This document shows positions 11,244 through 52,246 of a DNA stretch of 64,000 bases, one piece after another. This DNA comes from Thermoplasmata archaeon (lineage in GTDB: Archaea; Thermoplasmatota; Thermoplasmata; Lutacidiplasmatales; UBA184). Position 1 is the first letter of the stretch, and each line of letters opens with the position of its first letter. The position numbers and the translations under genes are program-made. Under the pieces are notes generated by a model, which was not told the origin of the DNA, made no database searches, and worked only from the letters and a program-made list of their open reading frames with translations. Location: the NCBI GenBank assembly GCA_022750115.1, contig JAKIWI010000001.1:83490-147489 (forward strand), in the 5' to 3' direction.

Positions 11244-11307
11244 AGGAGCCGAGCCCGCGCATCCGCCTCCTCAGGGTGGACCGGCGTGGTGACGGTGACG
11301 CCGTGAT

Positions 11308-12786
11308 ATGGACCTCCCACGTCGGACGCGGCATCCTCGCTCCATCTCGACGTCCGGCGAGCGGCCCGAGTTGGCGGACCGGGTCCTCCTGGGGAGTACG
11401 GTTGCGTTGACGGACTTGCGCGTGTGGTTCGGAGCTCGACCGGGCCGGTCGATCGCCGTCGTGCTATTCGTCGGTCTGGCGATCCGGGAAGCGTTCTCGT
11501 TCTGGACGGGACATCCGTACGACCTCGAGGTGTGGATCCGAACGGGGCACGCGGCGGCCGGCGGCGCGAGCCCGTACGCTCAGGCGTGGCCGGCGGTGCC
11601 CGGGGTCAGCTTCGGGTACACGAACCAGCCGCTGTACTCGGCAGCGTACCTCCCCTTCTGGCCGGACATCTTCGGAGGATCGTACCTGGTGTGGGAGCAC
11701 ATCGGGGGAGGCAATCGGTTCGTCCTCTACTTCCTCCTCAAGCAGGGGCCGATCGCCGGCGACCTCGCGGTCGCCGGGCTCCTCTACCGCTACGTACTCC
11801 GGGAAACGGGCGACGTTCGCGCGGCCCTCAGCGCGATGTCGTTCTGGGCATTCTTCCCCTACGACATCGCCATCACGGCGATCTGGGGGCAGCTCGATTC
11901 CGTCACCACCGTGTTGATCTTGGCCGTCCTCCTCGCGGAGGAGGCCCGCGCCGGCTGGCGGAGCATGGTCTGGGGCGTCGGGACCTTCGTGAAGTGGATC
12001 ACGGTCGTTTTCCTGCCGCTCGAGTTCTTTCGGAATCGCGGCCTCCAGCGCCTGTGGCCCTTGGTGGGACTGGGTGTCACTGGCGCGCTGACGCTCGTCG
12101 CATTCGATGTTCCTCACTGGCCGATCAGCATCCTCCTCCCATCGACGACCTCGTCGAGCGCGGGGGGAGGGGGCGGCATGAACTATGCTCAGCTCGCGAA
12201 CCTCTGGTTCCTCGCCGAACCGCTCAATGCGAACTCCGGGGTCACCTGGGTGCTGTCGCGGCTGTGGATCCCAGCGGTCGTGGCGGCGGGTTGGTATGCG
12301 GCGCGTTGGTTCCGGACTCCGGACTCGGGTCGAACACTCCGGGCGCTGTTGTTCGTCCTCACCACCCTGCTGCTGTTCCGCTGGGGGCTCTACGAACAGT
12401 ACATGCTGTACCCGTTCGCCCTGCTCGCCGCGGACGTCTACACGCTCCACCCGAAGCGGCGAGAGTTCCTCTACTTCCTCATCGTGCTCGCCACGGGGTT
12501 CTTTCTCGTCAACAATGTGCTCGGGATCTGGTTCGCGACCCCCGCGTACCCGAACGCGTTCGTGCTCGTGCAGAACTTCGACAGCTCGGCGACCTGGGGC
12601 ACGATCCGCTACGACCTTCTCGATGTGTTCGCCGTCTTGATGACGGCGACCCTGGTGCAGCTGCTCGTGGTCCTCGTGCGGGACGACCCGGCCCCGCGGC
12701 CCTGGATCTTCTGGCCCTGGCGACTCCGCCCCCGCGCGCCGGATCTCGCGACGCCGCCGAGCCCCGCCGCTTCGGGCGAGTCGTAA
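11308..12786 (+). CDS. polytopic membrane protein, GT-C-like (DUF2029 / mannosyltransferase-like) putative glycosyltransferase
   Basis: Roughly 11 predicted TM helices. Conserved periplasmic-loop region (..FWTGHPYDLEVWIRTG..) as in the DUF2029/GT87-type family. Start codon uncertain. Confidence 0.5.
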   Translation: MDLPRRTRHPRSISTSGERPELADRVLLGSTVALTDLRVWFGARPGRSIAVVLFVGLAIREAFSFWTGHPYDLEVWIRTGHAAAGGASPYAQAWPAVPGVSFGYTNQPLYSAAYLPFWPDIFGGSYLVWEHIGGGNRFVLYFLLKQGPIAGDLAVAGLLYRYVLRETGDVRAALSAMSFWAFFPYDIAITAIWGQLDSVTTVLILAVLLAEEARAGWRSMVWGVGTFVKWITVVFLPLEFFRNRGLQRLWPLVGLGVTGALTLVAFDVPHWPISILLPSTTSSSAGGGGGMNYAQLANLWFLAEPLNANSGVTWVLSRLWIPAVVAAGWYAARWFRTPDSGRTLRALLFVLTTLLLFRWGLYEQYMLYPFALLAADVYTLHPKRREFLYFLIVLATGFFLVNNVLGIWFATPAYPNAFVLVQNFDSSATWGTIRYDLLDVFAVLMTATLVQLLVVLVRDDPAPRPWIFWPWRLRPRAPDLATPPSPAASGES

Positions 12787-12789
12787 GGG

Positions 12790-13929
12790 ATGCGCGTCCT
12801 CGAGGTCACGCATCGGTATCCTCCCGCCCTCGGTGGCGTCGAGCGCCAGGTGCAGGGGCTGGCCCGGGGCCTCGTCGTCCGCGGGCATTCCGTGGAGGTG
12901 GTGACCACCGACCTCTCCCGCGACCGGCCGTTCGCCCGGCTGCCCCCCGGACCGTTCGAGGACGCAGTCCCGGTGCGCCGGCACCGGGTCGTTCGTACGC
13001 TCCCCGCGCCCCATGGCCTCGGACTCATCGCCCCGGGGATGGCAAGGGACGTGTACCGATCGTCCGCGGACGTGGTTCACGCGCACGCCTTCGGGATGGC
13101 ACCGACGTGGATGTCGGCCCTCGTGCGGCGCGTGAAGCGGACCCCGCTGGTCATCGAGACCCACTTCGACGCCGGACGTGGGACGTCCGGGTGGAGAACC
13201 TACGCCCGCGCCGTCGCGCGACTCACTCTCGCGCCGGCCGACCGAATTGTCGCGCACACGAAGATCGAGTCCGAGCTCCTCGTCTCGATCGGGGTCGATG
13301 CGGATCGCATCACCCAAATTCCGGCGGGGATCGACGTCGCGGAATTTGCGGGCCTCCCCGCCCGGACGCCCACGCAAGGTCGGCTCACCGCCCTGTTCGT
13401 GGGCCGGCTCGATCCGGAACGGAAGGGACTTGATTCAATGGTTCGCGCCCTCGCGAAGGTACCCGAGGGCCACCGACCCCGGCTCCGACTGGTCGGGGAG
13501 GATTGGGGCGGGAAGGACCCCGCCATCCGCCTCGCGGGCGAGTTGGGAGTCGGGGAGTGGGTGACGGCGACCGGACCGCTCCCCCGCGATCAGGTGGTGC
13601 GCGAGTACGGCCGCGCCGACCTGTTCGTACTTCCGTCGCTGTTCGAGTGCACCCCCGCGGTCCTGATGGAGGCGATGGCAGCGGGACTCCCGATCGTGAC
13701 GACACGGGTGGGTGGTGTCGCCGAGGTCGTCCTCGAGGGCCAGACCGCGCTGCTGTGTCCGCCCAACGACCCGGAGTCCCTCGCCGCCGCGGTGAGCCGA
13801 CTCGTCGAGGACGCGTCCCTCCGCGACCGATTTGGGCGGGCGGGGGTCGATCGGGCGCAGCTGTTCGGCTGGGACCAAGTCGTTCCCAAGTGGATCCGAC
13901 TGTTCGACGGCCTCGGCCGGGCGGGGTGA
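12790..13929 (+). CDS. glycosyltransferase family 4
   Basis: 379 aa with GT-B fold and the GT4 EX7E region (..FVLPSLFECTPAVLMEAMAAGLPIVTTRVGGVAEVV..). Confidence 0.8.
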   Translation: MRVLEVTHRYPPALGGVERQVQGLARGLVVRGHSVEVVTTDLSRDRPFARLPPGPFEDAVPVRRHRVVRTLPAPHGLGLIAPGMARDVYRSSADVVHAHAFGMAPTWMSALVRRVKRTPLVIETHFDAGRGTSGWRTYARAVARLTLAPADRIVAHTKIESELLVSIGVDADRITQIPAGIDVAEFAGLPARTPTQGRLTALFVGRLDPERKGLDSMVRALAKVPEGHRPRLRLVGEDWGGKDPAIRLAGELGVGEWVTATGPLPRDQVVREYGRADLFVLPSLFECTPAVLMEAMAAGLPIVTTRVGGVAEVVLEGQTALLCPPNDPESLAAAVSRLVEDASLRDRFGRAGVDRAQLFGWDQVVPKWIRLFDGLGRAG

Positions 13930-13986: not shown

Positions 13987-15234
13987 CTACGGCGGAGGCG
14001 GCGGTGGGGTCTTCTTCTTGGAGTCGGGCCCGCCGAACGCGGGCGGCGCCGAGGTCGGGTCGGCCGCGTGCTTGGCCGAACCGACGTCCATCCCTTCGGG
14101 GGGACCGAGCCGCGGGGGGGCCACGACGGGGCCGCCTCGCCCACTCTCGTCGATCGAGCCGCCGACCATCGCGGTGGACTCGTCGGTCTCCGCCTTGATC
14201 TCGTCTTCGATGCTCTTGATCTCGGTCAGGAGCTCCTCCTGCCGGGGGATCGGACCGAGCACGTCGTCGATCTTCCCGATGCGGCTCTCGAGCTCGTCGA
14301 GCGTGCTGAGGCTGCGGTCGGGGACGGTCCGCGACGTTCCGAGATACTCGCTCGCGCCTTCCATCAGGCGGGTGAACTCGAACGGGAACAGGATCTTGGT
14401 CGCTTGCCCGTTGCCGAGGTTCGAGACCGTGTCCAGCGAGAGGACGGTGAGGGCCTTGGCATCGAGCGTGCCGGCTCCGAGCGCGAGGATCCGCAGTCGC
14501 TGCGATTCTCCCTGGGCTTCCAGGATGGTCGCCATCCGGCCGCCCTCGGCCTCGAGGATCTTCGACTGCCGGGAGCCTTCGGCCTGCAGGATGCGAGAGC
14601 GCTTCTGCCCCTCGGCGACTAGGATCGCGGAGCGCTTCTCACCGTCCGCCCGGAGGACCGCGGCGCGCCGCTGCCGTTCCGCGGAGGTCTGCTCCTCCAT
14701 CGCGGCCTTGACCGGTCCGACGGGGTCGACCTCCTTGATCTCGACCGCCTCGACGCGGACCCCCCATCGGTCGGTCGCCTCGTCGAGGATGTCCCGGAGC
14801 CGGGTGTTGATCCGCTCGCGGTTGTAGAGCACCTCGTCGAGCTCCATGTCGCCGATGATCGACCGCAGGGTCGTCTGGGCGAGGGCGACGGTCGCGACGT
14901 GGTAGTCCTGGACCTGGAAGATCGCCTTGGGGGCGTCGACGACCTTGATGTAGATGATCGCGTCGACGTTCGTCGGCGAGTTGTCCTTCGTGATGACCTC
15001 CTGGCGGGGGACCTCGAGCACCTGCGTCCGCAGGTCGATGCGGACGACCTTGGCGAGCGGATTGAGGAACGTCAGTCCCGGGTTGATCATGCCCTTGTAG
15101 GACCCGAACAGGGTCACGACGCCCTGCTGGTAGGGATTGATCGACCAGGCGGAGCGGATCAGGAGGATGATGAAGATGAATCCGAAGACGGTGATGGCGA
15201 GGCTGATCCCGACCAGCGTTCCTGCGTCGACCAT
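13987..15234 (-). CDS. SPFH/band 7 (stomatin-like) protein with long coiled-coil and Pro-rich C-terminal tail
   Basis: N-terminal TM helix followed by an SPFH domain (..ITKDNSPTNVDAIIYIKVVDAPKAIFQV..). C-terminal extension ends KKKTPPPPPP. Confidence 0.8.
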   Translation of the reverse strand: MVDAGTLVGISLAITVFGFIFIILLIRSAWSINPYQQGVVTLFGSYKGMINPGLTFLNPLAKVVRIDLRTQVLEVPRQEVITKDNSPTNVDAIIYIKVVDAPKAIFQVQDYHVATVALAQTTLRSIIGDMELDEVLYNRERINTRLRDILDEATDRWGVRVEAVEIKEVDPVGPVKAAMEEQTSAERQRRAAVLRADGEKRSAILVAEGQKRSRILQAEGSRQSKILEAEGGRMATILEAQGESQRLRILALGAGTLDAKALTVLSLDTVSNLGNGQATKILFPFEFTRLMEGASEYLGTSRTVPDRSLSTLDELESRIGKIDDVLGPIPRQEELLTEIKSIEDEIKAETDESTAMVGGSIDESGRGGPVVAPPRLGPPEGMDVGSAKHAADPTSAPPAFGGPDSKKKTPPPPPP

Positions 15235-15270
15235 GTGATCCGTGATTCCTGTGAATGCCGTTCGGTCGAA

Positions 15271-15741
15271 CTACGATCCCGCGGCCTCGGTGAGCGGCGC
15301 GACGCGGACCGAAGTGCCTTCTCCGCCCAGCACGCGGACCTTCGTGCCCTCCGGGATGCGTTGGTCGGCCCGCGCCGACCAGATCTCCGACTGGACCCGG
15401 ACCTTGCCGCGCATGTTGTCCGGCTCGACCGCGGTCGTCACGATGCCCGTCTGGCCCTCGAGGGAGGAGGGGATGGTCGTCATCGGCCGGTGGACGGGCG
15501 CAATGTGCCGGTAGTACGGAATGGTCGCGAGGGTCGCCCCGAGGGCGACGAGGATGACGATCGCCGGCCCGAAGATCGAGTCGACCAGGAGCGGGGGGGA
15601 GACGAGGTAGACGACGCCCGCCGCGAGGAGGATCGAGCCGGGGATCAGCAGGAACGCCCCGGGGTGGATGATCTCGACGATGAAGAAGGCGGCCCCGATG
15701 AGGATCAGGGGCACGCCGACCACGAGACCTGCGTCGACCAT
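15271..15741 (-). CDS. NfeD-family short membrane protein (stomatin operon partner)
   Basis: 156 aa with 3 N-terminal TM helices and a C-terminal OB-like beta domain (..GKVRVQSEIWSARADQRIPEGTKVRVLGGEGTSVRV..). Lies immediately upstream of the stomatin gene. Confidence 0.75.
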   Translation of the reverse strand: MVDAGLVVGVPLILIGAAFFIVEIIHPGAFLLIPGSILLAAGVVYLVSPPLLVDSIFGPAIVILVALGATLATIPYYRHIAPVHRPMTTIPSSLEGQTGIVTTAVEPDNMRGKVRVQSEIWSARADQRIPEGTKVRVLGGEGTSVRVAPLTEAAGS

Positions 15742-15772
15742 CGGGAACCTCCGCCCATCACCGGCCCGCCGC

Positions 15773-15780
15773 GGATAAGG
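15773..15780 (-). promoter_or_regulatory. TATA-like box (CCTTATCC on minus strand) plus GGAGG box for the NfeD-stomatin operon
   Basis: TATA-like element about 31 nt upstream of the NfeD start, then a GGAGG box 7 nt before the ATG. Confidence 0.35.
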
Positions 15781-15801
15781 ATTGGGCCGAGCCCGCTGAG
15801 G

Positions 15802-25129: not shown

Positions 25130-26053
25130 TCAGCGAAGTTCGGGGCGGCCCGGGATCGGCACGACGACCTCGAACGTGAGCTCGACGTCGTCGGTCGCTG
25201 CCGCCAGGGGGGGGGAAGCTCTCGGGAGGGGGAGGGGAGCGGGCGGTGGCCCCGCGGGTCCGATCGACGACGGGGTCGAGTGGGCGGTCCGCGCCATCGA
25301 CTCGCCGATGTCGAGGGCCGCGATCCGCTCGGCGTCCACGAGCGCTTCGACCGGGTTGAGCATCGACTCTTCGATGTGGGTCGCGATGTGCTCGGCCCAG
25401 ATGCCCGCAACCTCGCGGAAGCGGGTCTGGCGGTCGGTCGCGAGCAGCTCCTCGTTGTCGAGGACCGTCAGTGTCGCTTGCCGACGAAGGCGCTTTTCCA
25501 CGAAGGCGTCGAGGAAATGGAGCCCGGCGATCGCGCGGTCCGCGACCGCGCGCCGTTCCGCCTCGGCGGCGAACGGCTTGATGACGAAGACGCTCAGCAC
25601 CTCGGCCGAGCGGCTCGCGGCGTCGAGCACCGGCCCGAGGATCCCGGTGCCGCTCCCGCCGCCCAGCGAGGCGACGACCGTCACGAAGGTGGCGCCCTCG
25701 AAGACCCGGTCGAGCGCAGGGCCGGCGGCGCGGGCGAGCTGCCCAGCGGCCGCGACCGAGGTCGGGATGCCGAACCCCGAGCCGTCCTCCGCTCCGAGAC
25801 AGATCCGGCGGTCGAAGTCCTCGGCCTCCGCGACCCGCGGGTCGCAGTTGATCGCGACGGTCTCGACGAAGCGAAGGTGGCGACGGGCGATCTCCCGGCC
25901 GACCCGGACGCCCCCGCCGCCGACGGCGACGAGGAGGAACCGGACGTCCTGACCTAGTCGGACGCTCGGCTCCCAGAGCCCTGCGTCGACGTCGTCCGTC
26001 CGGCGAATCGTTCGGTCTCGGTCGGTTCCCTGTTGTTCGTTGGCCTCGCGCAC
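25130..26053 (-). CDS. FtsZ/tubulin-superfamily GTPase, short non-canonical form (lacks most of the FtsZ C-terminal domain)
   Basis: N-terminal nucleotide-binding motifs are present: DVRFLLVAVGGGGVRVG (G-box 1) and VVASLGGGSGTGILGPVLD (tubulin signature GGGTGSG variant), followed by VFVIKPFAAE. It is about 307 aa from a GTG at 26053; the start is uncertain. It ends about 60 aa after the T7-loop region. Confidence 0.6.
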   Translation of the reverse strand: MREANEQQGTDRDRTIRRTDDVDAGLWEPSVRLGQDVRFLLVAVGGGGVRVGREIARRHLRFVETVAINCDPRVAEAEDFDRRICLGAEDGSGFGIPTSVAAAGQLARAAGPALDRVFEGATFVTVVASLGGGSGTGILGPVLDAASRSAEVLSVFVIKPFAAEAERRAVADRAIAGLHFLDAFVEKRLRRQATLTVLDNEELLATDRQTRFREVAGIWAEHIATHIEESMLNPVEALVDAERIAALDIGESMARTAHSTPSSIGPAGPPPAPLPLPRASPPLAAATDDVELTFEVVVPIPGRPELR

Positions 26054-26088: not shown

Positions 26089-26592
26089 CTACCGGCCGAG
26101 GACCCCCTTCCGCTCGAGCTCCTGCGACGTGTCGCGGAGCTCGCGCAACCTCTCGCGGTTGGCATCGGCGCCTCGAACGGCCGTCCGCGCCCGGTCGACC
26201 AGCTCTTGGACCTTCGCCTCGAGCTCGCCGCGACGGACGAGCTCGGCGAGGACGTCCGCAAGGTCGCGGCCGTTCCCGTTCAGCTCGCCGTAGACGCGGA
26301 GCGTCTCCACCTCGTCGACCCGGAGCCGGACCGGCACCTCGATCAGTTCCCGGGTCGGACGAGGGGTGGCGCTCGCAACGGCCGTGAGGGCCCGCGCCCG
26401 GAGGAATTCCCGGAGCGCGGAGCGCATCAGATCCGACCGGCTGCGGAACTCGCCACTGGCGACAAACGAGTCGACCAGCTGAAGCTCGCGGCGGTGGCAC
26501 CTGAGCGCAATGCGCTCATCCTCGGGGCCGATCCGTGTCGTGGACGGGGCACCGGCTCCGTCCGAATCGAGTTGCGGGGGTTTGTCGAACAC
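26089..26592 (-). CDS. tandem ribbon-helix-helix (CopG/Arc/MetJ-like) DNA-binding protein
   Basis: GTG start. First RHH unit is ERIALRCHRRELQLVDSFVASGEFRSRSDLMRSALREFL. Second RHH-like unit is IEVPVRLRVDEVETLRVYGELNGNGRDLADVLAELVRRG. It sits 36 nt upstream of the FtsZ-like gene. Confidence 0.6.
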   Translation of the reverse strand: MFDKPPQLDSDGAGAPSTTRIGPEDERIALRCHRRELQLVDSFVASGEFRSRSDLMRSALREFLRARALTAVASATPRPTRELIEVPVRLRVDEVETLRVYGELNGNGRDLADVLAELVRRGELEAKVQELVDRARTAVRGADANRERLRELRDTSQELERKGVLGR

Positions 26593-26912: not shown

Positions 26913-29135
26913 GTGACCGCAGTTGCTCCCCGAGGCCGCCGCATCCGATCGTCTCGATTTCGCCGCTCGGGCGCCCACCGCAACCAGCGGGGAGTGTCCG
27001 ACGTGGTCGCCACGATCCTGCTCCTCGCGCTCACGGTGACGCTGTTCGCCTCGGTGTTCTTCTTCATCAACACTTTCCCGCACCCGCCGGCACAGCCGGC
27101 CAACCAGTTCTCGGCGTCGCTCGCTTACAACGGCGCGAACATCATCTCGGTTCACGTCCTCCACCTCGCCGGCCCGACCATCGCTGGTGTCTCGACGACT
27201 CAGACCGCGATCTACCTCCAGTCCGCCGCCAAGCCGGCGTTGTTCGCCACTCCGTTCACCATCGCCCAGGGCCTGAACGGCTCGTCGGTCTGGTCGCTCG
27301 GCCAGACCTGGACCCTCAACCTGACGTCGTACGGCTTGACGGTCGGCGACAACCTGACGATCTCCATCATCACGCAGTCGCAGCTGCTGTTCCGCATCAC
27401 CCTCCCCGGCTCGAACCCGAACATGCCGCCGATCTTCTCGCAGGCGGGCATCAACCCGGCGAGCCCCGGCCCCAACCAGGCGTTCACGGTGTTCGTCGGC
27501 ATCACCGACAACAACCTCCGGTTCAGCTCGGTGTTCGTGAACCTCTCCCAGATCCCTGGAGTTGTGGGGAGCGGCCTCCACCAGATGGCCCTGCTCGCGA
27601 CGTCCGGCCTGTGGATCTACACGCTCGCCGCCGGTTCGATCTCGACCGGCACCTACTACGTGTTCGTGAACGCGACCGACAACTCGAGCCTGCACAACTC
27701 GATCGCGATCCCCGTCTTCATCTCGAACACCGGCGGCGGCTCCTCCGCGCTCCAGGTCCAGGTCGGCGCGAACAACACGGCGCCCGTCGCGGGACTGCCC
27801 GTCTTGCTCCAAGCCGAAGTCACCAACACGGGCGGCTCGGCCGCGACCGTCGTCGTTCAGTTCTACGTTGGCGGCAACACCGTCGGCGGCCCGCAATCGC
27901 AGGCGATCCTGGGCGGCGGCACCGCGCTCTACACGCAGGCGTGGACTCCGGCGGCCGTCGGAACGTCCTCGGTCCAGGCGCTTGCCACGATGACCGGCTC
28001 CTCGGCGGAGAGCGGGATCTCGATTACGGTCTTCCCGAAGATCCTGTTCATCGCCCACGCCTACCCGGCGGCCTCGTTCCCCGCGTCGAACACGAGCGCG
28101 AACATCGCCCAGATGCTCACCGCCGACGGGGTCCCGTACACCGCGATGTCCGTCGCCTGCGGTTCGACCCTCCCGGCCACGGCGACGCTGAGGTTGTACG
28201 GCGTCGTGATCATCGATTTCGGGAGCGCGACGGGCCTCGCCTGCGCCCAAGTCCCGCCCGGCGCCGCGGAACAGACGAAGATCACCGGCGCCGCCACGAC
28301 GACCAACTTCTGGTTGATCGGCTCGAACGCGTTCACCGCGACGGCGTGCACGAGCTACTCCGCGGCGTTCCAGACCCAATTCGGCCTGGCGACCTCGGGG
28401 ACTTGCACGACCTCGAAGTCGGCGAGCACGTCGCTCACCTACACCTCGTCCGCGACGTCCCCCGCGCTGCGGTCCGACGGGATCACCGCGGGGACACTCT
28501 CCCTCAACCAGACGTACGCGGCCTCGGCGGCGTTCCAGCCGTACTTCGCGCTGACCCTCCAAGCCTCCGGCCACGCCTGGCTGAAGGACTCCGGAGCGCT
28601 GACCGTAGGCGCGTACACGAACGCCTCGACCGACCATCAGCAGCTGATCCTCGCCACCGACCCGACGCTGATCGCGACCAAGACCCCGAACAACCAGGCG
28701 TGGGGTACGGGGACGGGCGCCGACGCGGCCGTGCTCTACAACGGCGTCAACTTCCTTTGCGGGCTGTCCACCACGACGAACGCCGGCCGTGGTCTCCTCG
28801 ACCAAGGCGTCGCCGGCGTCGTGACGATCGGCTTGAAGCACAACCTCCCCACGCAGTTCTACGTGGCGGTCCGGACGAATGGACCGTCGGGCGGGGGCGT
28901 CTTCGCGACCCTGTACGTCGGCGGCTCGCCGGCGTACTATCTCGGGTCCCTCGTCACGGGGCTCGGCACGCCCGGCGGCGCCGGCGCGTGGACGTGGATC
29001 GCATTCAACTGGAGCGCGCCGGCCGCGGGCAACTTCGTGCTGTCGGTGGGGATCACGACGGAGAACCCTGACTACTATGCGGCGAACAACCTGATCGCGA
29101 TCTCGTTCTACAACACCGCGACCGTGTTCACGTAG
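26913..29135 (+). CDS. large secreted pilin-like surface protein with archaeal class III (type IV prepilin-like) signal peptide
   Basis: The start upstream of the hydrophobic helix is uncertain. A GTG at 26913 would give a basic 27 aa leader (VTAVAPRGRRIRSSRFRRSGAHRNQRG) before the predicted cleavage site G|VSDVVATILLLALTVTLFASVFFFINTF. About 700 aa follow, beta-rich with dense NxS/T sequons. The upstream 125 codons of the ORF are probably non-coding. Confidence 0.55.
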   Translation: MTAVAPRGRRIRSSRFRRSGAHRNQRGVSDVVATILLLALTVTLFASVFFFINTFPHPPAQPANQFSASLAYNGANIISVHVLHLAGPTIAGVSTTQTAIYLQSAAKPALFATPFTIAQGLNGSSVWSLGQTWTLNLTSYGLTVGDNLTISIITQSQLLFRITLPGSNPNMPPIFSQAGINPASPGPNQAFTVFVGITDNNLRFSSVFVNLSQIPGVVGSGLHQMALLATSGLWIYTLAAGSISTGTYYVFVNATDNSSLHNSIAIPVFISNTGGGSSALQVQVGANNTAPVAGLPVLLQAEVTNTGGSAATVVVQFYVGGNTVGGPQSQAILGGGTALYTQAWTPAAVGTSSVQALATMTGSSAESGISITVFPKILFIAHAYPAASFPASNTSANIAQMLTADGVPYTAMSVACGSTLPATATLRLYGVVIIDFGSATGLACAQVPPGAAEQTKITGAATTTNFWLIGSNAFTATACTSYSAAFQTQFGLATSGTCTTSKSASTSLTYTSSATSPALRSDGITAGTLSLNQTYAASAAFQPYFALTLQASGHAWLKDSGALTVGAYTNASTDHQQLILATDPTLIATKTPNNQAWGTGTGADAAVLYNGVNFLCGLSTTTNAGRGLLDQGVAGVVTIGLKHNLPTQFYVAVRTNGPSGGGVFATLYVGGSPAYYLGSLVTGLGTPGGAGAWTWIAFNWSAPAAGNFVLSVGITTENPDYYAANNLIAISFYNTATVFT

Positions 29136-29219
29136 CGACCGGCGCCTCGCCGTCGCGACGCGGCTCCCGCGGCCCGCCCGGGCGCACCGTTACAAGCCGA
29201 AAGGGCCTCCCGGCCCGCG

Positions 29220-31841
29220 GTGTCGCGCCACGCCCTGGTCTTCCTCGCGGTCGTCCTCGTCGCGCTCCCGACGCTCACCACCTCCGGATGGGACCAGCGG
29301 CTCTCCGGGGCCTTCCCATCGCCTTCGGAATCGGTGGGGCATGACCGCGCGCTCTCCGCCCGACCTGCGGCTTCGAGCTCGCTCGGCGGGAACTGGTCGA
29401 CGTACCTGCAAAACCCGGGACGGACGGCCGCCAACCTCGCCGAACGCACCCTGAGCCCATCGAACGCCTCGCGGCTCGCCATCGAATGGAGGATCAAGTC
29501 GAACGGTTCGGACTTCGGCTCCCCGACGATCGTCAACGGCACCGTCTATGCCGGCTCGTGGGACGGAAGCGAGTACGCGATGAACGCGACGACCGGCCAC
29601 ATCCTCTGGAAGACGTTCCTCAGCACCGACCCGAACTGCAGCTGGGGGGACCCGATGGGCATCGACGGGAGCGCGGCGGTGTGGAACGGCACGGTGTTCG
29701 TCGGGGGCGGGAACGACTACTGGTACGCCCTCAACGCGACCAACGGCGCGGTCGATTGGAAGGTGAAGGTCACCGACACGACGTCCGCCGGTGGCGGGTT
29801 CAATTGGGCGAGCCCGCTCCTCTACCACGGTTACGAGTACATCGGCATCGCGAGCTGCATCGATAGCCCCCTCGTCCAGGGCCGCATGCTGATGGTGAAC
29901 CTCACTGGGAACCACTCGATCGTCCACCGGTTCAACTTCACGCCCGGCGGCGAGTTGGGAGCGACGATCTGGACGACACCCGCCGTGGACACGGCGACGA
30001 ACACTGTCTGGGTGGCGACGGGCAACGACGACGGAGTCCACTCGCAGCCGCTTTCCCAGTCGATCGTGGCGCTGAACGCGACCAACCTGAGCCTGTTGGG
30101 TTCTTGGATGGTTCCCGGCGTAAACGGAACGGATTCGGACTTCGGCGGCGGCGTGATCCTGTTCCACGACGCTTCCGGCCGAGAGCTCGTGGGGGCGGAG
30201 AACAAGAACGGCGTCTTCTACGCGCTCAACCGGTCGAACGTCACGTCGAACGGCTCGTGGGGACCGGTGTGGAACATCCCGACCGCGAGCGGCTTCTCTC
30301 CGGCCTCGTTCGATGGGACGACGCTCTACCTCGGCGGCGCCGGGGCCACGTTGAACGGCACGTCCTACGCGGGAACGGTCGAGGCGATCGACCCATCGGA
30401 CGGGTCGGTGAAGTGGACGCAGGGAACGGGAGGTCCGATCGACGCGGGTCTCGCGTACGCGAACGGCCTCGTCGCGGAGGGTTCAGGAGGCACCCTCGAG
30501 GTCATGAACGCCTCTTCGGGGGGGATTCTCTCCACCCTCGCGGTCCCCTCGGGCCAGTCCATCGAGGGCGCCGCGAGCATCGAGAACGGCCAGGTGTTCT
30601 TCGAGTCGGGCGATTTCTCGAGCCACGGGACGTTCCTCGCCGCGGGCATCCCGCTGGCGTCCGCGTCCCTCGTCGCCCAACCGCCGAATGGGAGCGCTCC
30701 CCTCAACATCTCCTTCGTCGGCGTCGTCGCAGGAGGGCTTCCGCCCTACAATTTCAGCTGGTCGTTCGGCGATGGCCAGACGGGATACGGGGCGGCTCCG
30801 GTCCACGCGTACCCCGCCATGGGGAGCTACAACGTCTCGGTCGTGGTACGGGATATGCGGAACGCGACCCAGACGGCGAACTCCAATGTGATCGTGACCC
30901 CCCCGCTTTCGGCGTCGTCCGCAGCAGTCCCCTCGATAGGGCCCGCACCCCTTACCGTGACGTTCACGGGGACGGCGGCGAACGGAGCCGGCGGCCCCTA
31001 CCGGTACACCTGGTCGTTCTCCGACCAGGGCGCGACGGCCACCGGGAGCGTGGTCACCCACACGTTCCACTCCGCGGGGACCTACTCCGTCGTCCTGACC
31101 GTGCACGACCTCTCGAACGGCACGATCACGAGCTCGGTCCAGGTCGTGGCGACCTCGGCGTTCCTCGCGAGCGCCCTCGCCACACCGACGACCGGCACGG
31201 TCCCCCTCCAGGTCGCTTTTCAAGCGCTCGGCAGCTTCGGCCAGGCGCCGTACCAGTTCCAGTGGGCGTTCGGAGACGGCAGCGCGAACTCCACCGGCCG
31301 GTTCGCGAACCACACCTACCTGAGCACGGGGTCGTTCAATGCCACGCTCCAGGCGAGCGATGCGCTCGGGACCGAGCACAACCTCAGCGTCCCGATCGTC
31401 GTGACCGCGGTTCCCCCGGCGCTCTTCACGTCGTACACGGAGGTGAACTCCTCGATCACCACGTGTCCGGGCCCGTCGTTCACGGTGCATCTCGTGGCGG
31501 TCTCGAGCGGCGGCACTCCGCCGTATGTCGACACCTGGACGTTCGGGGACAGCTCCCCACTCCAGCGGGGTGGGACGGCGAACCACACCTACACCAGCGC
31601 CGGCACCTTCGAGCTCACGCTGACCACGAACGACTCGGCCGGAGGCTCCACGACGGCGTCCGGCGTGGTCACGGTCCAGCTGGCGACGTGTCCGGTCGGG
31701 ACACACCCGCTCCCGCACTCCACGCCCCAGGGCGGGCTCCTCGCCTGGCAGTATGCGCTCGCGGGCGGCCTCGCCGTCGTCGTCCTCGCCGCGGCGGTCG
31801 TCGTCCTGTGGCGACGGCGCCGCGCGCCGCCGCCGAGCTAG
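29220..31841 (+). CDS. secreted PQQ-like beta-propeller protein with four PKD domains and C-terminal TM anchor
   Basis: Signal peptide present. PQQ-type repeats occur (..TIVNGTVYAGSWDGSEYAMNATTGHILWK..). Four PKD-like repeats each carry a WSFGDG/WTFGD core. C-terminal TM helix plus RRRR stop-transfer. Very dense N-glycosylation sequons. Confidence 0.7.
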   Translation: MSRHALVFLAVVLVALPTLTTSGWDQRLSGAFPSPSESVGHDRALSARPAASSSLGGNWSTYLQNPGRTAANLAERTLSPSNASRLAIEWRIKSNGSDFGSPTIVNGTVYAGSWDGSEYAMNATTGHILWKTFLSTDPNCSWGDPMGIDGSAAVWNGTVFVGGGNDYWYALNATNGAVDWKVKVTDTTSAGGGFNWASPLLYHGYEYIGIASCIDSPLVQGRMLMVNLTGNHSIVHRFNFTPGGELGATIWTTPAVDTATNTVWVATGNDDGVHSQPLSQSIVALNATNLSLLGSWMVPGVNGTDSDFGGGVILFHDASGRELVGAENKNGVFYALNRSNVTSNGSWGPVWNIPTASGFSPASFDGTTLYLGGAGATLNGTSYAGTVEAIDPSDGSVKWTQGTGGPIDAGLAYANGLVAEGSGGTLEVMNASSGGILSTLAVPSGQSIEGAASIENGQVFFESGDFSSHGTFLAAGIPLASASLVAQPPNGSAPLNISFVGVVAGGLPPYNFSWSFGDGQTGYGAAPVHAYPAMGSYNVSVVVRDMRNATQTANSNVIVTPPLSASSAAVPSIGPAPLTVTFTGTAANGAGGPYRYTWSFSDQGATATGSVVTHTFHSAGTYSVVLTVHDLSNGTITSSVQVVATSAFLASALATPTTGTVPLQVAFQALGSFGQAPYQFQWAFGDGSANSTGRFANHTYLSTGSFNATLQASDALGTEHNLSVPIVVTAVPPALFTSYTEVNSSITTCPGPSFTVHLVAVSSGGTPPYVDTWTFGDSSPLQRGGTANHTYTSAGTFELTLTTNDSAGGSTTASGVVTVQLATCPVGTHPLPHSTPQGGLLAWQYALAGGLAVVVLAAAVVVLWRRRRAPPPS

Positions 31842-31849
31842 GCGCGCGC

Positions 31850-34162
31850 CTACCGGTCCATCCGACGGACCACGACGATGGCGACCGCGATCATCGCGGC
31901 GCCCCCGAGGACCGCGAGCGCCACGACGGCCGTGTCCGCGCCGATCGAGCTCGACGAGCCGCCGTTGGTGCTCGGGTGGGTCGTCTCGTTGTTGCTCGCG
32001 GCGGCCGCACTGACGGAGACGTGGAACTGCTGGCTCACGGAGATCCCGCGGTGGTCGACGACGGTGAACGTCGCATCGTACGAACCGGCGGACGCGTAGG
32101 CGTGGGTCGCGTCGATGGTCGCCGCGGCGTGCTGGTCCCCGAAGTCCCAGACCGAGGTGTACGGAGCCTCGCCGCCATTGACGGTTCCCGAGAACGAGAC
32201 GCTCGAGTTCGCGACGGCGGTCGGCGGGGCCGTCCCGCTCGCGCTCAGGCCCGGCCCGACGGTGATGTTGACCCAGGAGGTGTGCAGGATCCCGCGCGCG
32301 TCGGTGACGGTGAAGGTCGTGGTGAGCGCGCCGGGGATCGTGAACGTGTGGTTCACGGCCGTTCCGGTCGCGGTCGACCCGTCGCCGAACGCCCACGCCG
32401 TCGTGTACGGCAGCACGCCGCCGGACATCGATGAACTGAACCAGACCTGGAGCGGGGCCGCTCCGTCGGTGGCCGACGCCACGACGCCGCTCCCCAGAGG
32501 CGCGATGACCAGAGGCTCCGCCACGATCGTGAACGTGTCGTTCCAGCTCGCCCCGGCCGAGTCCGTGACGTTCACGGTGGCGGTGAACGTTCCGGACGCC
32601 CCGTAGACGAACGACGTCGTGTCCGACGTGCTGGTGTTCGTCCCGGCGCCGGCCGACCACAGGACGTCGTAGGGCGCGCTGCCGCCCGACGCGGCGAAGG
32701 AGCATTGGACCGTGAGCGGCACGACCCCGGTCGTCGGGAACGCCTGCGCCGACGCCGTCAAGGGCGCGATCACGCGGACGAAGAACGACGTGCTGGCGGA
32801 GCTACCGTTCGCATCGTTCGCCCAGACCGTCGCCATGTAGCGTCCGGGAGTCCCGTAGAAGTTGCTGGTCGCGGGCTCGGTCGAGGAGTTGCCGTCGCCG
32901 AACTCCCACAGGTAGCTGATGGTGCCGCTTCCGCCGACCGCGGTGGCGTCAAACCCGACCCGGATCGACCCGGTGGAGTACGACGCCGTGTCGTTCGCCG
33001 TGAGGTTGACCCCCGCATACACCCAGGTGTCGGTGAGGTCGCCGAGCGCGCCAGATCCTCCCCAGAGAATGACCTGTGCGGCGGACGGGTCGTAGGCCAT
33101 CTCGCCGAAGAATCGGGGGAGCGGTGCGTCGTTCGGGTGGCTGGGGGTCCACTGGTCGCCGGAGAACAGCCAGGTGTCCCCGAACGTCTGGGCGCCGCTT
33201 CCTCCGAACAGAACCAGGGAGGAGATGGCCACGTCATAGGAGAAGCTCGCCATCGACCGAGCGCTCGGGTGAACCGATTCGGTGAGCTGGGTCCAGTTGT
33301 TGGCGTGGAACGCCCAGGTGTCGGAGTCGGTCCCGGCGGCGTAGTCGTCGCCGCCGAACAGGATGACTTGGTTGTCCGCCGCATCGTAGCGGAGCGCGAC
33401 GTTCTCCCGGGCCGACGGAGCGGAGCTGAGGCTGACCTGGGTCCAGTTCCCGCCAACGAACGTCCACGTGTCGCCAATGGCGCTCCCGGCGCAGCCACCG
33501 AAGAGGACCATCTCGTTGTCGGCCCCGTCCCAGGTCATCGCCGACGCCCAGCGGGCCGACGGATGGGTCGAGGGGGTGAGTTGCGTCCAATTGCCGTGGA
33601 GGAACGTCCAGGTGTCGCCGTAGTCGCCGCCGTTGCCCGAGCCGCCGAACAGCAGGACGTAGCCGTCGATCGGGTCCCAGGCGAGCGTGGAGTGGTCGCG
33701 AGCGGTCGGGGAGGCCTTCGGGTGGATCTGGGTCCAGCTCCCGTTCGCGTAGGTCCACGTGTCGCCGAGGTAGCCGCCTCCCGACCCGTAGCCGCCGAAC
33801 ATGAGCAGGTAGTGGTCGATGGGGTCGTAGGCGAACGAGCGGCCGTAACTTCGCGGAGCGGGGGACTTCCCCGAGGTGTTCGTCACGTTGTCCCACCCGG
33901 GAACGCCGGTGGCGGTCGCGTTTTGGCCCGGGCCGATCGCGCCCGTGGCGGAGCGGAGCGAAGCATGGGAGATCGCGGGGGACGGAGCAGCGAGGGCCGA
34001 GGCCGCCGCCAGTCGGGCGGGGGCCCCCGTCACGATGGAGTGAGCTGCCGAGTGGGGGATGGGCGCGAACGCCGAGGCCCCGAGCAGCGTGCCGAGCGCG
34101 AGGAGGACAAGAACCGAGGTCGACCAGGCAAGAGTTCGTCGGCCAAAGATCGATGTCGTCAC
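31850..34162 (-). CDS. secreted Kelch-repeat beta-propeller protein with PKD domains and C-terminal TM anchor
   Basis: Signal peptide present. Five or six Kelch-like repeats (..LFGGxGxxxxxGDTWTF..NWTQ..). Four PKD-like repeats (..WEFGDGN.., ..WAFGDGS.., ..WDFGDQ..). C-terminal TM helix. Confidence 0.7.
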   Translation of the reverse strand: MTTSIFGRRTLAWSTSVLVLLALGTLLGASAFAPIPHSAAHSIVTGAPARLAAASALAAPSPAISHASLRSATGAIGPGQNATATGVPGWDNVTNTSGKSPAPRSYGRSFAYDPIDHYLLMFGGYGSGGGYLGDTWTYANGSWTQIHPKASPTARDHSTLAWDPIDGYVLLFGGSGNGGDYGDTWTFLHGNWTQLTPSTHPSARWASAMTWDGADNEMVLFGGCAGSAIGDTWTFVGGNWTQVSLSSAPSARENVALRYDAADNQVILFGGDDYAAGTDSDTWAFHANNWTQLTESVHPSARSMASFSYDVAISSLVLFGGSGAQTFGDTWLFSGDQWTPSHPNDAPLPRFFGEMAYDPSAAQVILWGGSGALGDLTDTWVYAGVNLTANDTASYSTGSIRVGFDATAVGGSGTISYLWEFGDGNSSTEPATSNFYGTPGRYMATVWANDANGSSASTSFFVRVIAPLTASAQAFPTTGVVPLTVQCSFAASGGSAPYDVLWSAGAGTNTSTSDTTSFVYGASGTFTATVNVTDSAGASWNDTFTIVAEPLVIAPLGSGVVASATDGAAPLQVWFSSSMSGGVLPYTTAWAFGDGSTATGTAVNHTFTIPGALTTTFTVTDARGILHTSWVNITVGPGLSASGTAPPTAVANSSVSFSGTVNGGEAPYTSVWDFGDQHAAATIDATHAYASAGSYDATFTVVDHRGISVSQQFHVSVSAAAASNNETTHPSTNGGSSSSIGADTAVVALAVLGGAAMIAVAIVVVRRMDR

Positions 34163-34259
34163 GGCTACTCCCCGTTCGGCGATGCCGCGGGGGTAGTTCC
34201 GTCTTTGGACCGCCCACCGAGCCGGTCGGCGTCGTCCGGACGAACCGGGCGAGCCCCGG

Positions 34260-35354
34260 TCAGCTCCCGCCGGACTTCAGGGGGGTGCCGGCGCCGGGGC
34301 TCAGCGGAGCTCCGCACTTCCAGCAGTTCTTCTCATCCGGGTACACGACAGCGCCGCACTTGGGACAACTCGACTCGGCCCGACGGGCCGCTCCGGTTAC
34401 GGCGGGCGAGGCGCTCGGCGGGGGAGTCCCCCCGGTCGAGCTCGGCGGGGCTCCGGTCGTCGGAGGGATCATCTCCGCGTCCGAGGCGGCCCGCTGCGCT
34501 TTGCGACGCGCTTCGCGGCTCTTCAGGAATACGTAGACGAGGAGGGCGAGGAAGAAAACGATCCCCGGATAGAACAGGATGTCGATGGCGGTCTGGGGCA
34601 GCAGGAGCTGGTACGTCGTCGCCCACGTGCCGGTGATCGGGCCCTGCACCGCCCCGTAGGCGTTCGGGACGGCGAGGAAGATCCACTGGTAGGTCGTGTT
34701 CGTCTTGTTGGCGCTCGCGTTGAACGTCGTCGCGCGCGCGAGGAGCCCCATCTGCCACCACCAGATGTTCGGGCCAGGGAGGTTCACGTGGAACGTCACG
34801 GGCGTCGGGGACGCGCTCACCGTCGTGACGTTCTGACCGACCGGGTAGAACGGGTAGCCGGAGCCGCAGAACGGAGAGGAGTTCCCCGTCGCGCCTGGGC
34901 AGGTACTGACGTAGACCCACAGTTGGTACGGCGTGTAGTTCGTCGGAAGTCGATTCGGATACAGGTCGACGGTGAACGCGAAAGCCGAGCCGCCGGCCCC
35001 GTTGTAGGGCGTGGCGGTGGCGTTGGTCAGAACCGGTGCACCGGTGGAGGTGTTGCCGTGATCCGTCGAGGAGTTCACGGCGGGGCTCGGCGTCATCGCC
35101 TCGGATGTGAGGCCGTAGTTGACGATCGGCGCCGCGAGGAGCAGCGCGGCGATACCCAGGATCGCGAGGTGCTTGGGGACCTTCCAGCCGAGGTAGATCG
35201 GAAGCCCGAGCCCGGCAAGGAGGAACGTCGGGATCGCGAAGTACGGCCCGAGGTAGAAGAACGACGCCGCGAGGGTCGCGAGGGCGATCAGGAACAGGAC
35301 GATCTTGCCGGCGCGGGTCTGCACCAGCGCCTTCAAGCTGACCGCTCGCGGCAC
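34260..35354 (-). CDS. membrane protein with extracytoplasmic sequon-rich domain and C-terminal cytoplasmic zinc ribbon
   Basis: Start reassigned to a GTG at 35354, which lies 26 nt downstream of a TATA box. Two N-terminal TM helices, an external domain, a C-terminal TM helix, then a CPKCGAVVYPDEKNCWKCGAPL zinc ribbon. Confidence 0.5.
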   Translation of the reverse strand: MPRAVSLKALVQTRAGKIVLFLIALATLAASFFYLGPYFAIPTFLLAGLGLPIYLGWKVPKHLAILGIAALLLAAPIVNYGLTSEAMTPSPAVNSSTDHGNTSTGAPVLTNATATPYNGAGGSAFAFTVDLYPNRLPTNYTPYQLWVYVSTCPGATGNSSPFCGSGYPFYPVGQNVTTVSASPTPVTFHVNLPGPNIWWWQMGLLARATTFNASANKTNTTYQWIFLAVPNAYGAVQGPITGTWATTYQLLLPQTAIDILFYPGIVFFLALLVYVFLKSREARRKAQRAASDAEMIPPTTGAPPSSTGGTPPPSASPAVTGAARRAESSCPKCGAVVYPDEKNCWKCGAPLSPGAGTPLKSGGS

Positions 35355-47650: not shown

Positions 47651-47864
47651 CTCTCGCTGAGCACCGGCGGGGCGAGAACGGGTGCGGATTCGGCGCCAAG
47701 CCGAGCGAACTGCAGGACGTGCGAGGACCAGAGGGCAGCTAGTCGACCAGCTCCGGGCGCCGAGGTTCGCCCCACGGGATCCGGTGATCGGTCCCGGAAC
47801 TCCGGCCCGGAATGCTGGGCGGCCGCCGCCCGGGGCCGGAGCGAGACCTAGATGAATCCGCGCC

Positions 47865-48989
47865 ATGTCGGAGGCCCTCGAAGGAGGGAGCGTGTTGGGT
47901 CGGGGGGAAGCGGCGATCGATGGACCGAGCCTTGGAATCCTGATGACGGTGTTCCACCGCGCGGGGTTCTATCGCGACGCGCTCGAGAGCGTTGCCGCCC
48001 AATCCGGTTCGCTTCCGCCCGTCGAGCTGGTCGTGGTCTCGAGCTCGGACATGTCGGTCGATGTGCCCGCGACGCTTCGAGCGCGAGGCTGGAAGTGCCA
48101 GGTCCTGAAGAACGACTCCGTGGGGGAAGGGCCGTTCCTCGCTCCAGGGTTGGAGCGACTTGGAAGCGACTTCATCCTCCCGCTCGACGACGATGACATC
48201 TGGGAGCCGGGGCGACTTGCGCACGTCGCGGAGGTCCTTCGGCAACACCCCCGGGCTTCGTACTATCACAACGGGCAGTCGTTCGTGGACGCGCTGGGAG
48301 CCCCCTTGCCCCCGGACCGGGCGCTGCGAGGGCTGCGCCGGCTCTCGGGCGTGCCGCAAGGAGGCCTTCGGGCCTTGAGTCGCGAAGACCTCCGACGTCA
48401 CCGCGGTGGGCTGAGTCGGTGGGGATCGGTGTTCAACAACAGCTCCGTCGCCATCCGTCGACGCGCGCTCACCTCCTGCCTCGACGAGCTGAGCCGAGCC
48501 GAATGGTTGTTCGACCTGTTCATGTTCTATGCTGGAGTCTGCGATTGCGAACAGGTCCTGTTCGACTCGTCCCCCCAGACACGGTATCGCATCCACGCCT
48601 GGAACCGCTCGCGGGGGGCGCAGACTCTCGGGCGATTCGAGTCGGCGACCCCCTCGCGCAGCCGGGAGGGTCGGCTCGCGACGCTGGGGGTCCTTCACGA
48701 GATGGTCGCGCGCAGGGGTCCGTCGTGGCTCCTCGACTGGGTCGAACACGATCAGGTCTACTTCGACGCCCTCGAGGCGCTCCGGGAGGGAGACTCCGAC
48801 CGACTGGAGACTGCGCGCCGGGTCGGCCGACTGATTCGATACGTGGGCTACTCGGACCCACTCATGAACCTCGTTCTGAGTCTCACCTCGCTCGCCCAGC
48901 TCGCGGCGCCTCAGTTGGTCAGTCGAGCGTATTGGACGAAACACGGGGTCGACCGTCGCGCCGGCTCGCCCGCCTCGGAAGCCAGGTGA
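47865..48989 (+). CDS. glycosyltransferase family 2-like protein
   Basis: GT-A N-terminus (LGILMTVFHRAGFYRDALESV) with a DDDD acidic motif (ILPLDDDDIWEP). Confidence 0.55.
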   Translation: MSEALEGGSVLGRGEAAIDGPSLGILMTVFHRAGFYRDALESVAAQSGSLPPVELVVVSSSDMSVDVPATLRARGWKCQVLKNDSVGEGPFLAPGLERLGSDFILPLDDDDIWEPGRLAHVAEVLRQHPRASYYHNGQSFVDALGAPLPPDRALRGLRRLSGVPQGGLRALSREDLRRHRGGLSRWGSVFNNSSVAIRRRALTSCLDELSRAEWLFDLFMFYAGVCDCEQVLFDSSPQTRYRIHAWNRSRGAQTLGRFESATPSRSREGRLATLGVLHEMVARRGPSWLLDWVEHDQVYFDALEALREGDSDRLETARRVGRLIRYVGYSDPLMNLVLSLTSLAQLAAPQLVSRAYWTKHGVDRRAGSPASEAR

Positions 48990-52212: not shown

Positions 52213-52240
52213 GGGACGACCCGAACACTCGGTCGCACGC

Positions 52241-52246
52241 TTATCA
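52241..52246. promoter_or_regulatory. shared bidirectional TATA-like element (TTATCA / TGATAA) between divergent genes
   Basis: It lies 27 nt from the minus-strand GTG (52212) and 34 nt from the plus-strand GTG (52281). Confidence 0.3.

Follow-up and report, generated by a model that had tools for sequence, protein, structure and literature searches.

Four adjacent genes for predicted membrane-anchored glycoproteins form a composite cluster in a Lutacidiplasmatales-like Thermoplasmata archaeon and may serve a disordered cell coat

Positions 26913 to 35354 of a 64-kb stretch of DNA from a Thermoplasmata archaeon (assembly GCA_022750115.1, contig JAKIWI010000001.1, positions 83,490 to 147,489 of the forward strand; hereafter the window, meaning all 64,000 nucleotides) contain four genes, g1 to g4, whose products are predicted to sit in the membrane and face the outside of the cell:

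26913-29135, plus strand: g1, a 740-aa type IV pilin-like surface protein (class III signal peptide) with a multidomain ectodomain; Pilin_N and CARDB matches
29220-31841, plus strand: g2, 873 aa, a type I membrane protein made up of a PQQ-like propeller, then four PKD domains, then a C-terminal transmembrane (TM) helix; Pfam PQQ_2 and four PKD_4
31850-34162, minus strand: g3, 770 aa, a type I membrane protein whose Kelch propeller has six blades and is followed by four PKD domains and a C-terminal TM helix; PF24681 and four PKD_4
34260-35354, minus strand: g4, a 364-aa protein with four TM helices, an ectodomain that is a beta-sandwich rich in Asn-x-Ser/Thr glycosylation sites (sequons) and a cytoplasmic C-terminal zinc ribbon; model and sequence

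The genes form two co-directional pairs that converge, with 84 bp between g1 and g2, 97 bp between g4 and g3, and 8 bp between the stop codons of g2 and g3. In this DNA of about 69% G+C, the bias at third codon positions (GC3) gives one clear reading frame for each gene. The start of g1 is a GTG, with GAGAGG lying 5 nt upstream and no alternative in-frame start ahead of the hydrophobic helix. Scanning 26913-35354 for bacterial-type promoters and terminators, an approach ill-suited to archaea, gave no signal over shuffled expectation. The original prediction, made from the letters alone, is right in the main. It had placed four adjacent genes exactly in this interval, and our gene models agree. 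It had also called all four products giant, which g4, at just 364 aa, is not.

The two central genes encode the propeller proteins, with the following parts:

29220-29288, plus strand: g2 N-terminal signal peptide (MSRHALVFLAVVLVALPTLTTSG); hydropathy 2.06 at residues 5-23, equivalent N-termini in homologues
29382-30644, plus strand: g2 PQQ-like (BamB-type) propeller head, residues ~55-475; PQQ_2 and Beta-prop_ACSF4 matches, BamB sequence matches in the PDB
30657-31664, plus strand: g2 stalk of four PKD domains, residues ~480-815; PKD_4 in four stretches, collagenase PKD matches in the PDB
31755-31811, plus strand: g2 C-terminal TM anchor (ALAGGLAVVVLAAAVVVLW), then RRRRAPPPS; hydropathy 2.61
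33008-33865, minus strand: g3 Kelch propeller, residues ~100-385, six [FW]GG...D[TL]Wx[FY] blades; motif matches
32003-32980, minus strand: g3 stalk of four PKD domains, residues ~395-720; PKD_4 in four stretches, ColH and ColG PKD matches in the PDB
31871-31927, minus strand: g3 C-terminal TM anchor (VVALAVLGGAAMIAVAIVV), then VRRMDR; hydropathy 2.83

Tandem PKD domains are found in both proteins, PKD_4 reaching 156.8 bits in g2 and 132.2 bits in g3 over four stretches each, and WxF[GS]D motifs recur in the g2 stalk at residues 514, 598, 682 and 773. The Kelch model PF24681 scores 101.8 bits in g3 against a Pfam cut-off of 50, and the six blade motifs lie at residues 122, 172, 221, 269, 319 and 367. 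g3 has an N-terminal hydrophobic signal sequence, as does g2. Twin-arginine (Tat) export, suggested by the string GRRTLAW in g3, was rejected; the twin arginine is not conserved in the N-termini of g3 homologues, and export is therefore of the Sec type. The C-terminal halves of g2 and g3 are collinear (31% identity over 406 aa, E = 6e-31), and the shared plan runs from signal peptide through head, four PKD domains and a Ser/Thr/Pro linker to a TM helix and an Arg-rich stop-transfer. g2 and g3 are thus one chassis on which the heads have been swapped. Paralogues on this chassis at the related Thermoplasmata loci L001 and L002 (L-numbers label such loci, P-numbers homologous proteins) carry PQQ, Kelch, YncE/lactonase-type or PKD-only heads. 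Full-length g2 homologues, at 40-78% identity, come from metagenome-assembled genomes (MAGs) of Thermoplasmata. PQQ, Kelch and PKD domains are also fused in single proteins of 1090-1510 aa in related Thermoplasmata (P0054, P0056, P0071 and P0085), and P0081 is another such fusion. At L009, a 1279-aa PQQ/Kelch/PKD fusion (1422-5261) adjoins PEP synthase in the same conserved block that holds g4. Such fusions hint, in the manner of a Rosetta stone, that the heads of g2 and g3 may work together.

For the anchor, we looked at sorting signals. No PGF-CTERM or other sorting-signal model reached its threshold, the nearest being GG_III-CTERM (17.8 against 22) and PVV-CTERM (17 against 27). The C-termini of about 50 g2 homologues comprise a Ser/Thr/Pro linker, the TM helix, an Arg cluster and often a long, variable Pro-rich tail, and no C-terminal motif is shared among them. 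On these two results a hidden C-terminal sorting signal in g2 and g3 was rejected, and their anchor reads as a plain type I TM helix. The original prediction thus described this convergent pair correctly, down to the PQQ and Kelch heads, the four PKD domains, the C-terminal TM helices and the missing PGF-CTERM signal.

Sequon enrichment was scored as z against 2000 shuffles of each protein. g2 carries 32 sequons against 9.4 expected (z = 8.4-8.7; 3.67 per 100 aa), g3 18 against 6.3 (z = 5.3; 2.34 per 100 aa) and g4 9-10 against 2.4-2.8 (z = 4.7-4.8; 2.47 per 100 aa), while the window's cytoplasmic proteins reach 0-0.5 per 100 aa. In g2, g3 and g4, sequons on extracytoplasmic segments therefore lie above chance, as in archaeal N-glycoproteins. 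g1 has 11-12 against 8.7-9.2 expected (z about 1; 1.5 per 100 aa), a count that its N/S/T-rich composition alone predicts. The extreme density that had been claimed for all four proteins is accordingly a property of g2, g3 and g4 (z = 8.4, 5.3 and 4.8) and not of g1 (z = 0.9). The families behave alike, z exceeding 3 in 35/35 full-length g2 homologues, 54/65 g4 homologues and 2/70 g1 homologues. For g1 the argument would be one of site conservation, not of sequon number. Its sequons N136, N147, N210 and N253 in the Ig-like part and N393 and N532 with the alpha/beta domain are kept in 80-99% of 70 homologues, in which mean column identity is 44%.

The sequons of g2 and g3 are part of the blade repeats and occupy equivalent positions in successive blades. 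The g2 blade motif A[LM]N[AR][ST], with its built-in sequon, occurs five times. What we take to be the canonical BamB/PQQ blade motif, ALDa.TG, reads ALNAT.G in g2, and this exchange creates the glycosylation sequon in its blades. Five of the six g3 blades have a sequon N[GWL][ST] 3-4 residues past the DTWxF motif (N140, N191, N239, N289 and N386). Charged residues (K+R+D+E) make up 5-10% of the g1-g4 ectodomains compared with 21-30% of the cytoplasmic neighbours, and Ser+Thr make up about 20%, a composition typical of acid-exposed proteins. By these measures g1-g4 are very probably N-glycosylated, and probably heavily so, and the predicted surface location and glycosylation potential of the cluster proteins are well supported.

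g1 is built differently, behind a class III signal peptide:

26913-27071, plus strand: g1 class III signal peptide and N-terminal hydrophobic helix (..QRG, cleavage, then VSDVVATILLLALTV..); sequence, hydropathy and model
27108-28055, plus strand: g1 tandem Ig-like beta-sandwich domains including CARDB, residues 66-381; model, CARDB-like PDB matches 2kl6 and 3idu
28092-28772, plus strand: g1 alpha/beta domain, residues 394-620; alternating helix and strand in the model
28803-29129, plus strand: g1 C-terminal beta-sandwich, residues 631-739; model

Pilin_N (PF07790) scores 32.3 bits against a Pfam cut-off of 25.2 and TIGR02537 20.2 against an NCBIfam cut-off of 20, so both thresholds are passed; CARDB (PF07705) is matched too. 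A basic n-region of 27 aa precedes the hydrophobic helix, which has a hydropathy peak of 2.55 and spans residues 29-53 in the AlphaFold2 model. The prepilin-peptidase site, [KR]-G/A and then a hydrophobic stretch, was read from the sequence as ..HRNQRG followed by VSDVVATILLLALTVTLFASVF.., and the family consensus RxVSDVVxTILLLALTV is upheld in 70 homologues. The N-terminus of the profile built from these homologues matches the solved archaeal pilins 8fj5 and 8gi2. The model (pLDDT 86.6) consists of the N-terminal helix, about 4-5 Ig-like sandwiches, the alpha/beta domain and a last sandwich. This last sandwich is the best-conserved part of g1, at 99% identity between the window and L005. Pfam and PDB sequence searches with the alpha/beta domain gave no match. 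A Foldseek search of the g1 model against the PDB returned 466 matches, all to generic tandem-Ig proteins with TM-scores of at most 0.16, which allow no specific assignment.

The fourth protein combines an outer sandwich with an inner zinc ribbon:

34632-35078, minus strand: g4 beta-sandwich ectodomain, residues 93-241, holding 9/9 sequons; model strands
34302-34373, minus strand: g4 cytoplasmic zinc ribbon (CPKCGAVVYPDEKNCWKCGAPL), behind a KSREARRKAQR stop-transfer and a disordered Pro-rich linker; weak Zn_ribbon matches

The g4 product is 100% identical to P0121, deposited at NCBI as 'zinc ribbon domain-containing protein [Thermoplasmata archaeon]'. Its only Pfam hits are weak zinc-ribbon matches, at about 20.6 bits against gathering cut-offs of 25-27 (E = 3e-4). 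The AlphaFold2 model, from a 65-sequence alignment, has a pLDDT of 88.5 and places three N-terminal TM helices before the sandwich and, after it, a fourth TM helix that runs into a cytoplasmic helix, the linker and the zinc ribbon. From the model helices and the positive-inside rule, both termini are predicted to be inside, with the sandwich outside and the tail and zinc ribbon in the cytoplasm. Export or anchor signals are present in all four products, as the original prediction had it, and each has an ectodomain; its wording that the region encodes only extracytoplasmic proteins is too loose for g4. Across the 65 homologues C330, C333, C344 and C347 are invariant, as are C152 and C163 of the ectodomain in the alignment. 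Foldseek of the g4 model against the PDB gave no match with E < 1e-3, only arrestin-like and FnIII-like beta-sandwich noise with TM-scores of at most 0.23. Searching its profile against PDB sequences found nothing meaningful and no likeness to a known pilus component. The family has 53 clusters at 50% identity with E <= 1e-30. g4 represents an undescribed, uncharacterised family that has no Pfam model beyond the weak zinc-ribbon matches.

The best g2 matches, at 78% identity, are titled 'Candidatus Lutacidiplasmatales archaeon', and all named matches to g1, g2 and g4 are Thermoplasmata MAGs. Scanning GTDB species representatives with the g4 profile found relatives in 130 species, of which 80 loci were kept. 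Nearly all are titled Thermoplasmata or Thermoplasmatota (one is labelled Methanobacteriota, and one is mislabelled 'bacterium'), and they include Lutacidiplasma silvani and the AcS/SubAcS MAGs from acid soil. One such MAG, AcS4-93, has both a 1.8-kb contig whose g4 is 100% identical to that of the window and a second g4 locus at 43% identity with full synteny (L010 and L020). The two loci suggest that this bin mixes two Thermoplasmata populations.

L007, L008 and L009 share one gene order: PEP synthase, Trm5, ApgM, g4, a convergent g1, RHH, FtsZ-like and PAC2, with g4 and g1 directly adjacent. Both flanks are present in 58 of the 80 further species loci, and all 58 keep the same frame, in which g4 belongs to the PEP synthase/Trm5/ApgM block and a variable slot separates it from two genes, one for a CdrS-like RHH protein and one for an FtsZ-like protein. 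From g4 to the RHH gene, the slot measures between 212 bp and 9.2 kb; at 7.7 kb, that of the window is the second largest. About 50 of the 58 slots hold one or two convergent class III-signal open reading frames (ORFs) of 190-900 aa, and about 24 hold the full-length g1 type. Two tandem g1-type giants occupy the slot of L089 (1140-6025), and some of the larger slots, as in L028, L044 and L047, have 3-4 smaller ORFs including divergent pilin-like genes. The insertion of g2 and g3 into the slot is common to the closest relatives only: L005 has RHH, g1, g2 and g3, and in L013 g3 follows g4. Elsewhere the layout differs: the convergent g2/g3 pair lies after phosphoketolase and DUF6855 in L001 and L002, with extra Kelch-PKD or PKD-only paralogues, and g2/g3 paralogues are scattered in L003, L004 and L006. 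The pair is a cassette from a large paralogous family. Because g4 lies in a conserved block, g1 in a variable slot and g2/g3 in a slot cassette confined to close relatives, the region is a composite of two evolutionary modules and not one unit. The single island of the original prediction does not survive this comparison of neighbourhoods in related MAGs.

Between the window and L005, identity is 99.4% for RHH, 93.5% for g1, 78% for g2 and 87% for g3. As to the ratio of nonsynonymous to synonymous substitution (dN/dS), RHH has 0.02, g1 0.08, the C-terminal half of g3 0.16 and g2 0.22. At 0.08-0.22, g1, g2 and g3 are functional genes under purifying selection. Within g2, the propeller has a dN/dS of 0.07-0.23 and the PKD stalk 0.26-0.44; no positive selection on the propeller heads was seen. 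In g2 the constrained part is the head, which presumably contacts the ligand, and the stalk behaves as a spacer would.

Taken together, we consider it likely, with some reserve, that this is a composite cluster of membrane-anchored, N-glycosylated surface proteins serving a disordered coat in Lutacidiplasmatales-like Thermoplasmata. The first module, as synteny shows, is g4, fixed beside apgM-trm5-ppsA, together with the facing slot, which usually holds one or two class III-signal proteins. After cleavage by prepilin peptidase, the N-terminal helix of g1 would stay in the membrane and display a chain of Ig-like and alpha/beta domains of about 690 aa. The convergent g2/g3 pair, sharing one chassis and differing in the heads, is the second module, again by synteny. 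Its products would be exported by Sec and retained as type I membrane proteins, and an oligosaccharyltransferase would glycosylate the Asn-x-Ser/Thr sites inside the blade repeats. A PKD domain is about 4 nm long. With four of them plus the propeller, the stalk would lift a glycan-ringed, non-enzymatic propeller about 15-20 nm off the membrane. At that height the heads would serve a disordered glycoprotein coat, like that of S-layer-less Thermoplasmatales, by binding or by shielding.

Cryo-tomography of cultured, S-layer-less Thermoplasmatales has imaged an exterior protein layer (EPL) of about 20 nm that is dense and unordered and likely consists of glycoprotein, whose proteins Gaines et al. 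(2025, ISME J) state to be unidentified and an open question (PMC12448462). The idea of an S-layer substitute, part of the original prediction, therefore has a real counterpart, and a coat role of g1-g4 in place of an S-layer is plausible by analogy. Like the EPL, g1-g3 would be membrane-anchored, belong to the class Thermoplasmata and have about the right predicted length. Unlike the proteins of the window, which come from a different, uncultured order, the EPL was imaged in Cuniculiplasma and Oxyplasma, both Thermoplasmatales. Six glycosyltransferase genes in the window speak for the coat.

Several points weigh against it. The match lists of this analysis contain no homologue from a cultured, imaged Thermoplasmatales species, and the link to the imaged coat is therefore an analogy across orders. 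The Lutacidiplasmatales description (PMC9287336) is silent on the cell envelope. No STT3/AglB, prepilin peptidase or pilus ATPase gene was found in the window, and WWDxG is absent from every frame. g1 has no excess of sequons over its composition, and the topology calls draw on hydropathy, the positive-inside rule and AlphaFold2 helices. The slot is empty in 4 of the 58 flanked loci, so that g4 has no strict need of a neighbouring pilin-like gene, and its adjacency within a housekeeping block may reflect history rather than function. A stronger version of the coat proposal is that apgM, g4, the variable slot, the cdrS-like RHH gene and the ftsZ-like gene make up a conserved surface-coat cassette site of soil Thermoplasmata, with g4 as membrane partner (anchor, organiser or coupler) of the slot glycoproteins and all of them together as EPL components; we regard it as unlikely.

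The slot may instead be a surface-antigen locus of variable adhesin or receptor cassettes, whose contents are exchanged to alter binding to particles, polymers, cells or DPANN partners, or to evade viruses. This is possible, if doubtful, and it is compatible with the coat. The wide variation of slot content and length among species (0.2-9.2 kb) suits it, as do the placement of the g2/g3 pair elsewhere in L001 and L002, the fusion in L009, and the far faster divergence of g2 than of g1 and RHH between the window and L005. Binding is a classic role of PKD, Kelch, CARDB and Ig-like domains, and beta-propeller/CARDB proteins of Thermoplasmatales have been proposed to take part in intercellular interactions (PMC10354927). 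However, dN/dS is well under 1 throughout and the head is the better conserved part, the opposite of what antigenic diversification predicts for a binding face.

A locus related to type IV pili, with g1 as a pilin or tip adhesin in a filament and g4 as an accessory or platform-associated protein, is quite unlikely. Like the archaeal type IV pilins 8fj5 and 8gi2, g1 has a basic n-region, a class III motif cleaved between RG and V and a hydrophobic N-terminal helix, its Pilin_N domain is bona fide, and pilin-like genes adjoin g4 in about 50 of the 58 loci. Unlike them, it is about five times larger (740 aa compared with about 145-165 aa for the solved filament-forming archaeal pilins) and has 5-6 extra domains. 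Many archaeal class III-signal proteins, such as the sugar-binding proteins of Sulfolobus, are not filament subunits. The genes annotated in the window and at the related loci include no type IV pilus ATPase, platform protein or prepilin peptidase (for T2SSE/PilC-type genes, the window and L007-L009), although Thermoplasmatales pilin genes can lie far from the assembly machinery (PMC12448462). g4, moreover, resembles no known pilus component.

It is very improbable that g2 and g3 are extracellular enzymes on PKD tethers, a quinoprotein dehydrogenase or tetrathionate-hydrolase-like protein and a galactose-oxidase-like protein: sulfur-compound oxidation is proposed for Lutacidiplasmatales (PMC9287336) and g2 partially matches TIGR03075 (E = 4.5e-16), the Acidithiobacillus tetrathionate hydrolase 6l8a (E = 2e-8) and the quinone alcohol dehydrogenase 8gy2, but TIGR03075 reaches 58.6 bits against a cut-off of 480 over residues 81-189 only, the 6l8a match spans about 135 residues of generic blade repeats, g2 is matched best by the non-enzymatic scaffold BamB, no Kelch enzyme turned up for g3 among PDB sequences, and head swapping among paralogues on one chassis points to binding modules more than to defined enzymes. 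The quinoprotein and tetrathionate hydrolase assignments of g2 were rejected.

Among described architectures, the nearest is found in surface proteins of Methanosarcina mazei that join a YVTN beta-propeller to PKD domains; Jing et al. (2002, Structure 10:1453, cited in PMC10354927) are reported to have described them, and they are proposed to act at the cell surface or between cells. g2 and g3 resemble them as archaeal extracellular propeller heads on tandem PKD domains. They differ in their PQQ/BamB-like and Kelch heads, fixed four-PKD stalk, TM helix with Arg stop-transfer and very high sequon density within the blade repeats, and in their hosts, which are acid-soil Thermoplasmata and not methanogens. 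The g2 head shares its PQQ-like repeat type with BamB (YfgL) and PQQ-dependent dehydrogenases, which give its best PDB and NCBIfam matches. Only the repeat type is in common with BamB, and we rejected that assignment; g2 scores far under the family cut-offs (NF008351, 42.2 against 423; TIGR03300, 41.5 against 285), and its archaeal host has no outer membrane. As a tandem Ig-like archaeal surface protein, g1 recalls the N-glycosylated S-layer protein csg of Haloferax volcanii (7ptp), at Foldseek rank 42 with a TM-score of just 0.14, a generic multi-Ig resemblance. csg is held by a PGF-CTERM/archaeosortase lipid anchor and assembles into a lattice; the anchor of g1 is N-terminal and pilin-like.

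A gene pair divergent from g1 is syntenic in nearly all related loci reaching that far. It encodes a 167-aa RHH protein with a weak CdrS-like match (26089-26592, minus strand; NF058555, E = 1.4e-6) and a 306-aa FtsZ/tubulin-family protein (25130-26050, minus strand; TIGR00065, 62.7 bits against an FtsZ cut-off of 295). The two recall cdrS-ftsZ2, a cell-division locus of haloarchaea (PMC7439475). Further away, a 1300-aa ORF (59144-63046, minus strand) has its first TM helix near residue 190. An ectodomain of some 850 aa follows, in which there are 22 sequons (z = 4.3) but no Pfam domain, and then a second TM helix and a cytoplasmic tail with four CxxC-type zinc ribbons. Its design is that of g4 on a larger scale; homology to g4 beyond the zinc ribbons was rejected. 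An ORF of about 1000-1200 aa (48919-52518, minus strand; 1199 aa over its full length) combines some nine TM helices with an extracytoplasmic C-terminal domain, which spans about 560 aa and has 12 sequons, and a last TM helix. Searches of Pfam and NCBIfam gave no match for it. Genes on its flanks are of the GT2 (47856-48989 and 53267-54307) and GT4 (54210-55517) types, and it may itself be an unrecognised GT-C-type glycosyltransferase; it cannot be recognised as AglB, having no STT3 Pfam match and no WWDxG motif. A second glycosylation cluster (7143-13929, plus strand) comprises a GT2 gene (7143-9095), a marginally GT87-like multi-TM gene (11299-12786; 26 bits against a cut-off of 25) and a GT4 gene (12787-13929), and adjoins an SPFH/NfeD pair (13987-15801). 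With at least two further sequon-rich membrane proteins elsewhere in the window, such proteins are common in this genome and are not confined to the region of g1-g4.

PKD domains, beta-propellers, class III signals and N-glycosylation are known themes, and public records already list homologues under the names 'PKD domain-containing protein', 'type IV pilin' and 'zinc ribbon domain-containing protein'. Our results therefore refine current knowledge rather than overturn it. What is new is the g4 family, its fixed place beside a hypervariable pilin-like slot, and the sequons embedded in the blade repeats. The cluster offers testable candidates for coat proteins of Thermoplasmata: a chassis of four PKD domains and a TM helix with interchangeable, glycan-studded heads, pilin-anchored giants, and g4. 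Their fixed address beside apgM and the cdrS/ftsZ-like pair should make these genes easy to locate in any Thermoplasmata MAG.

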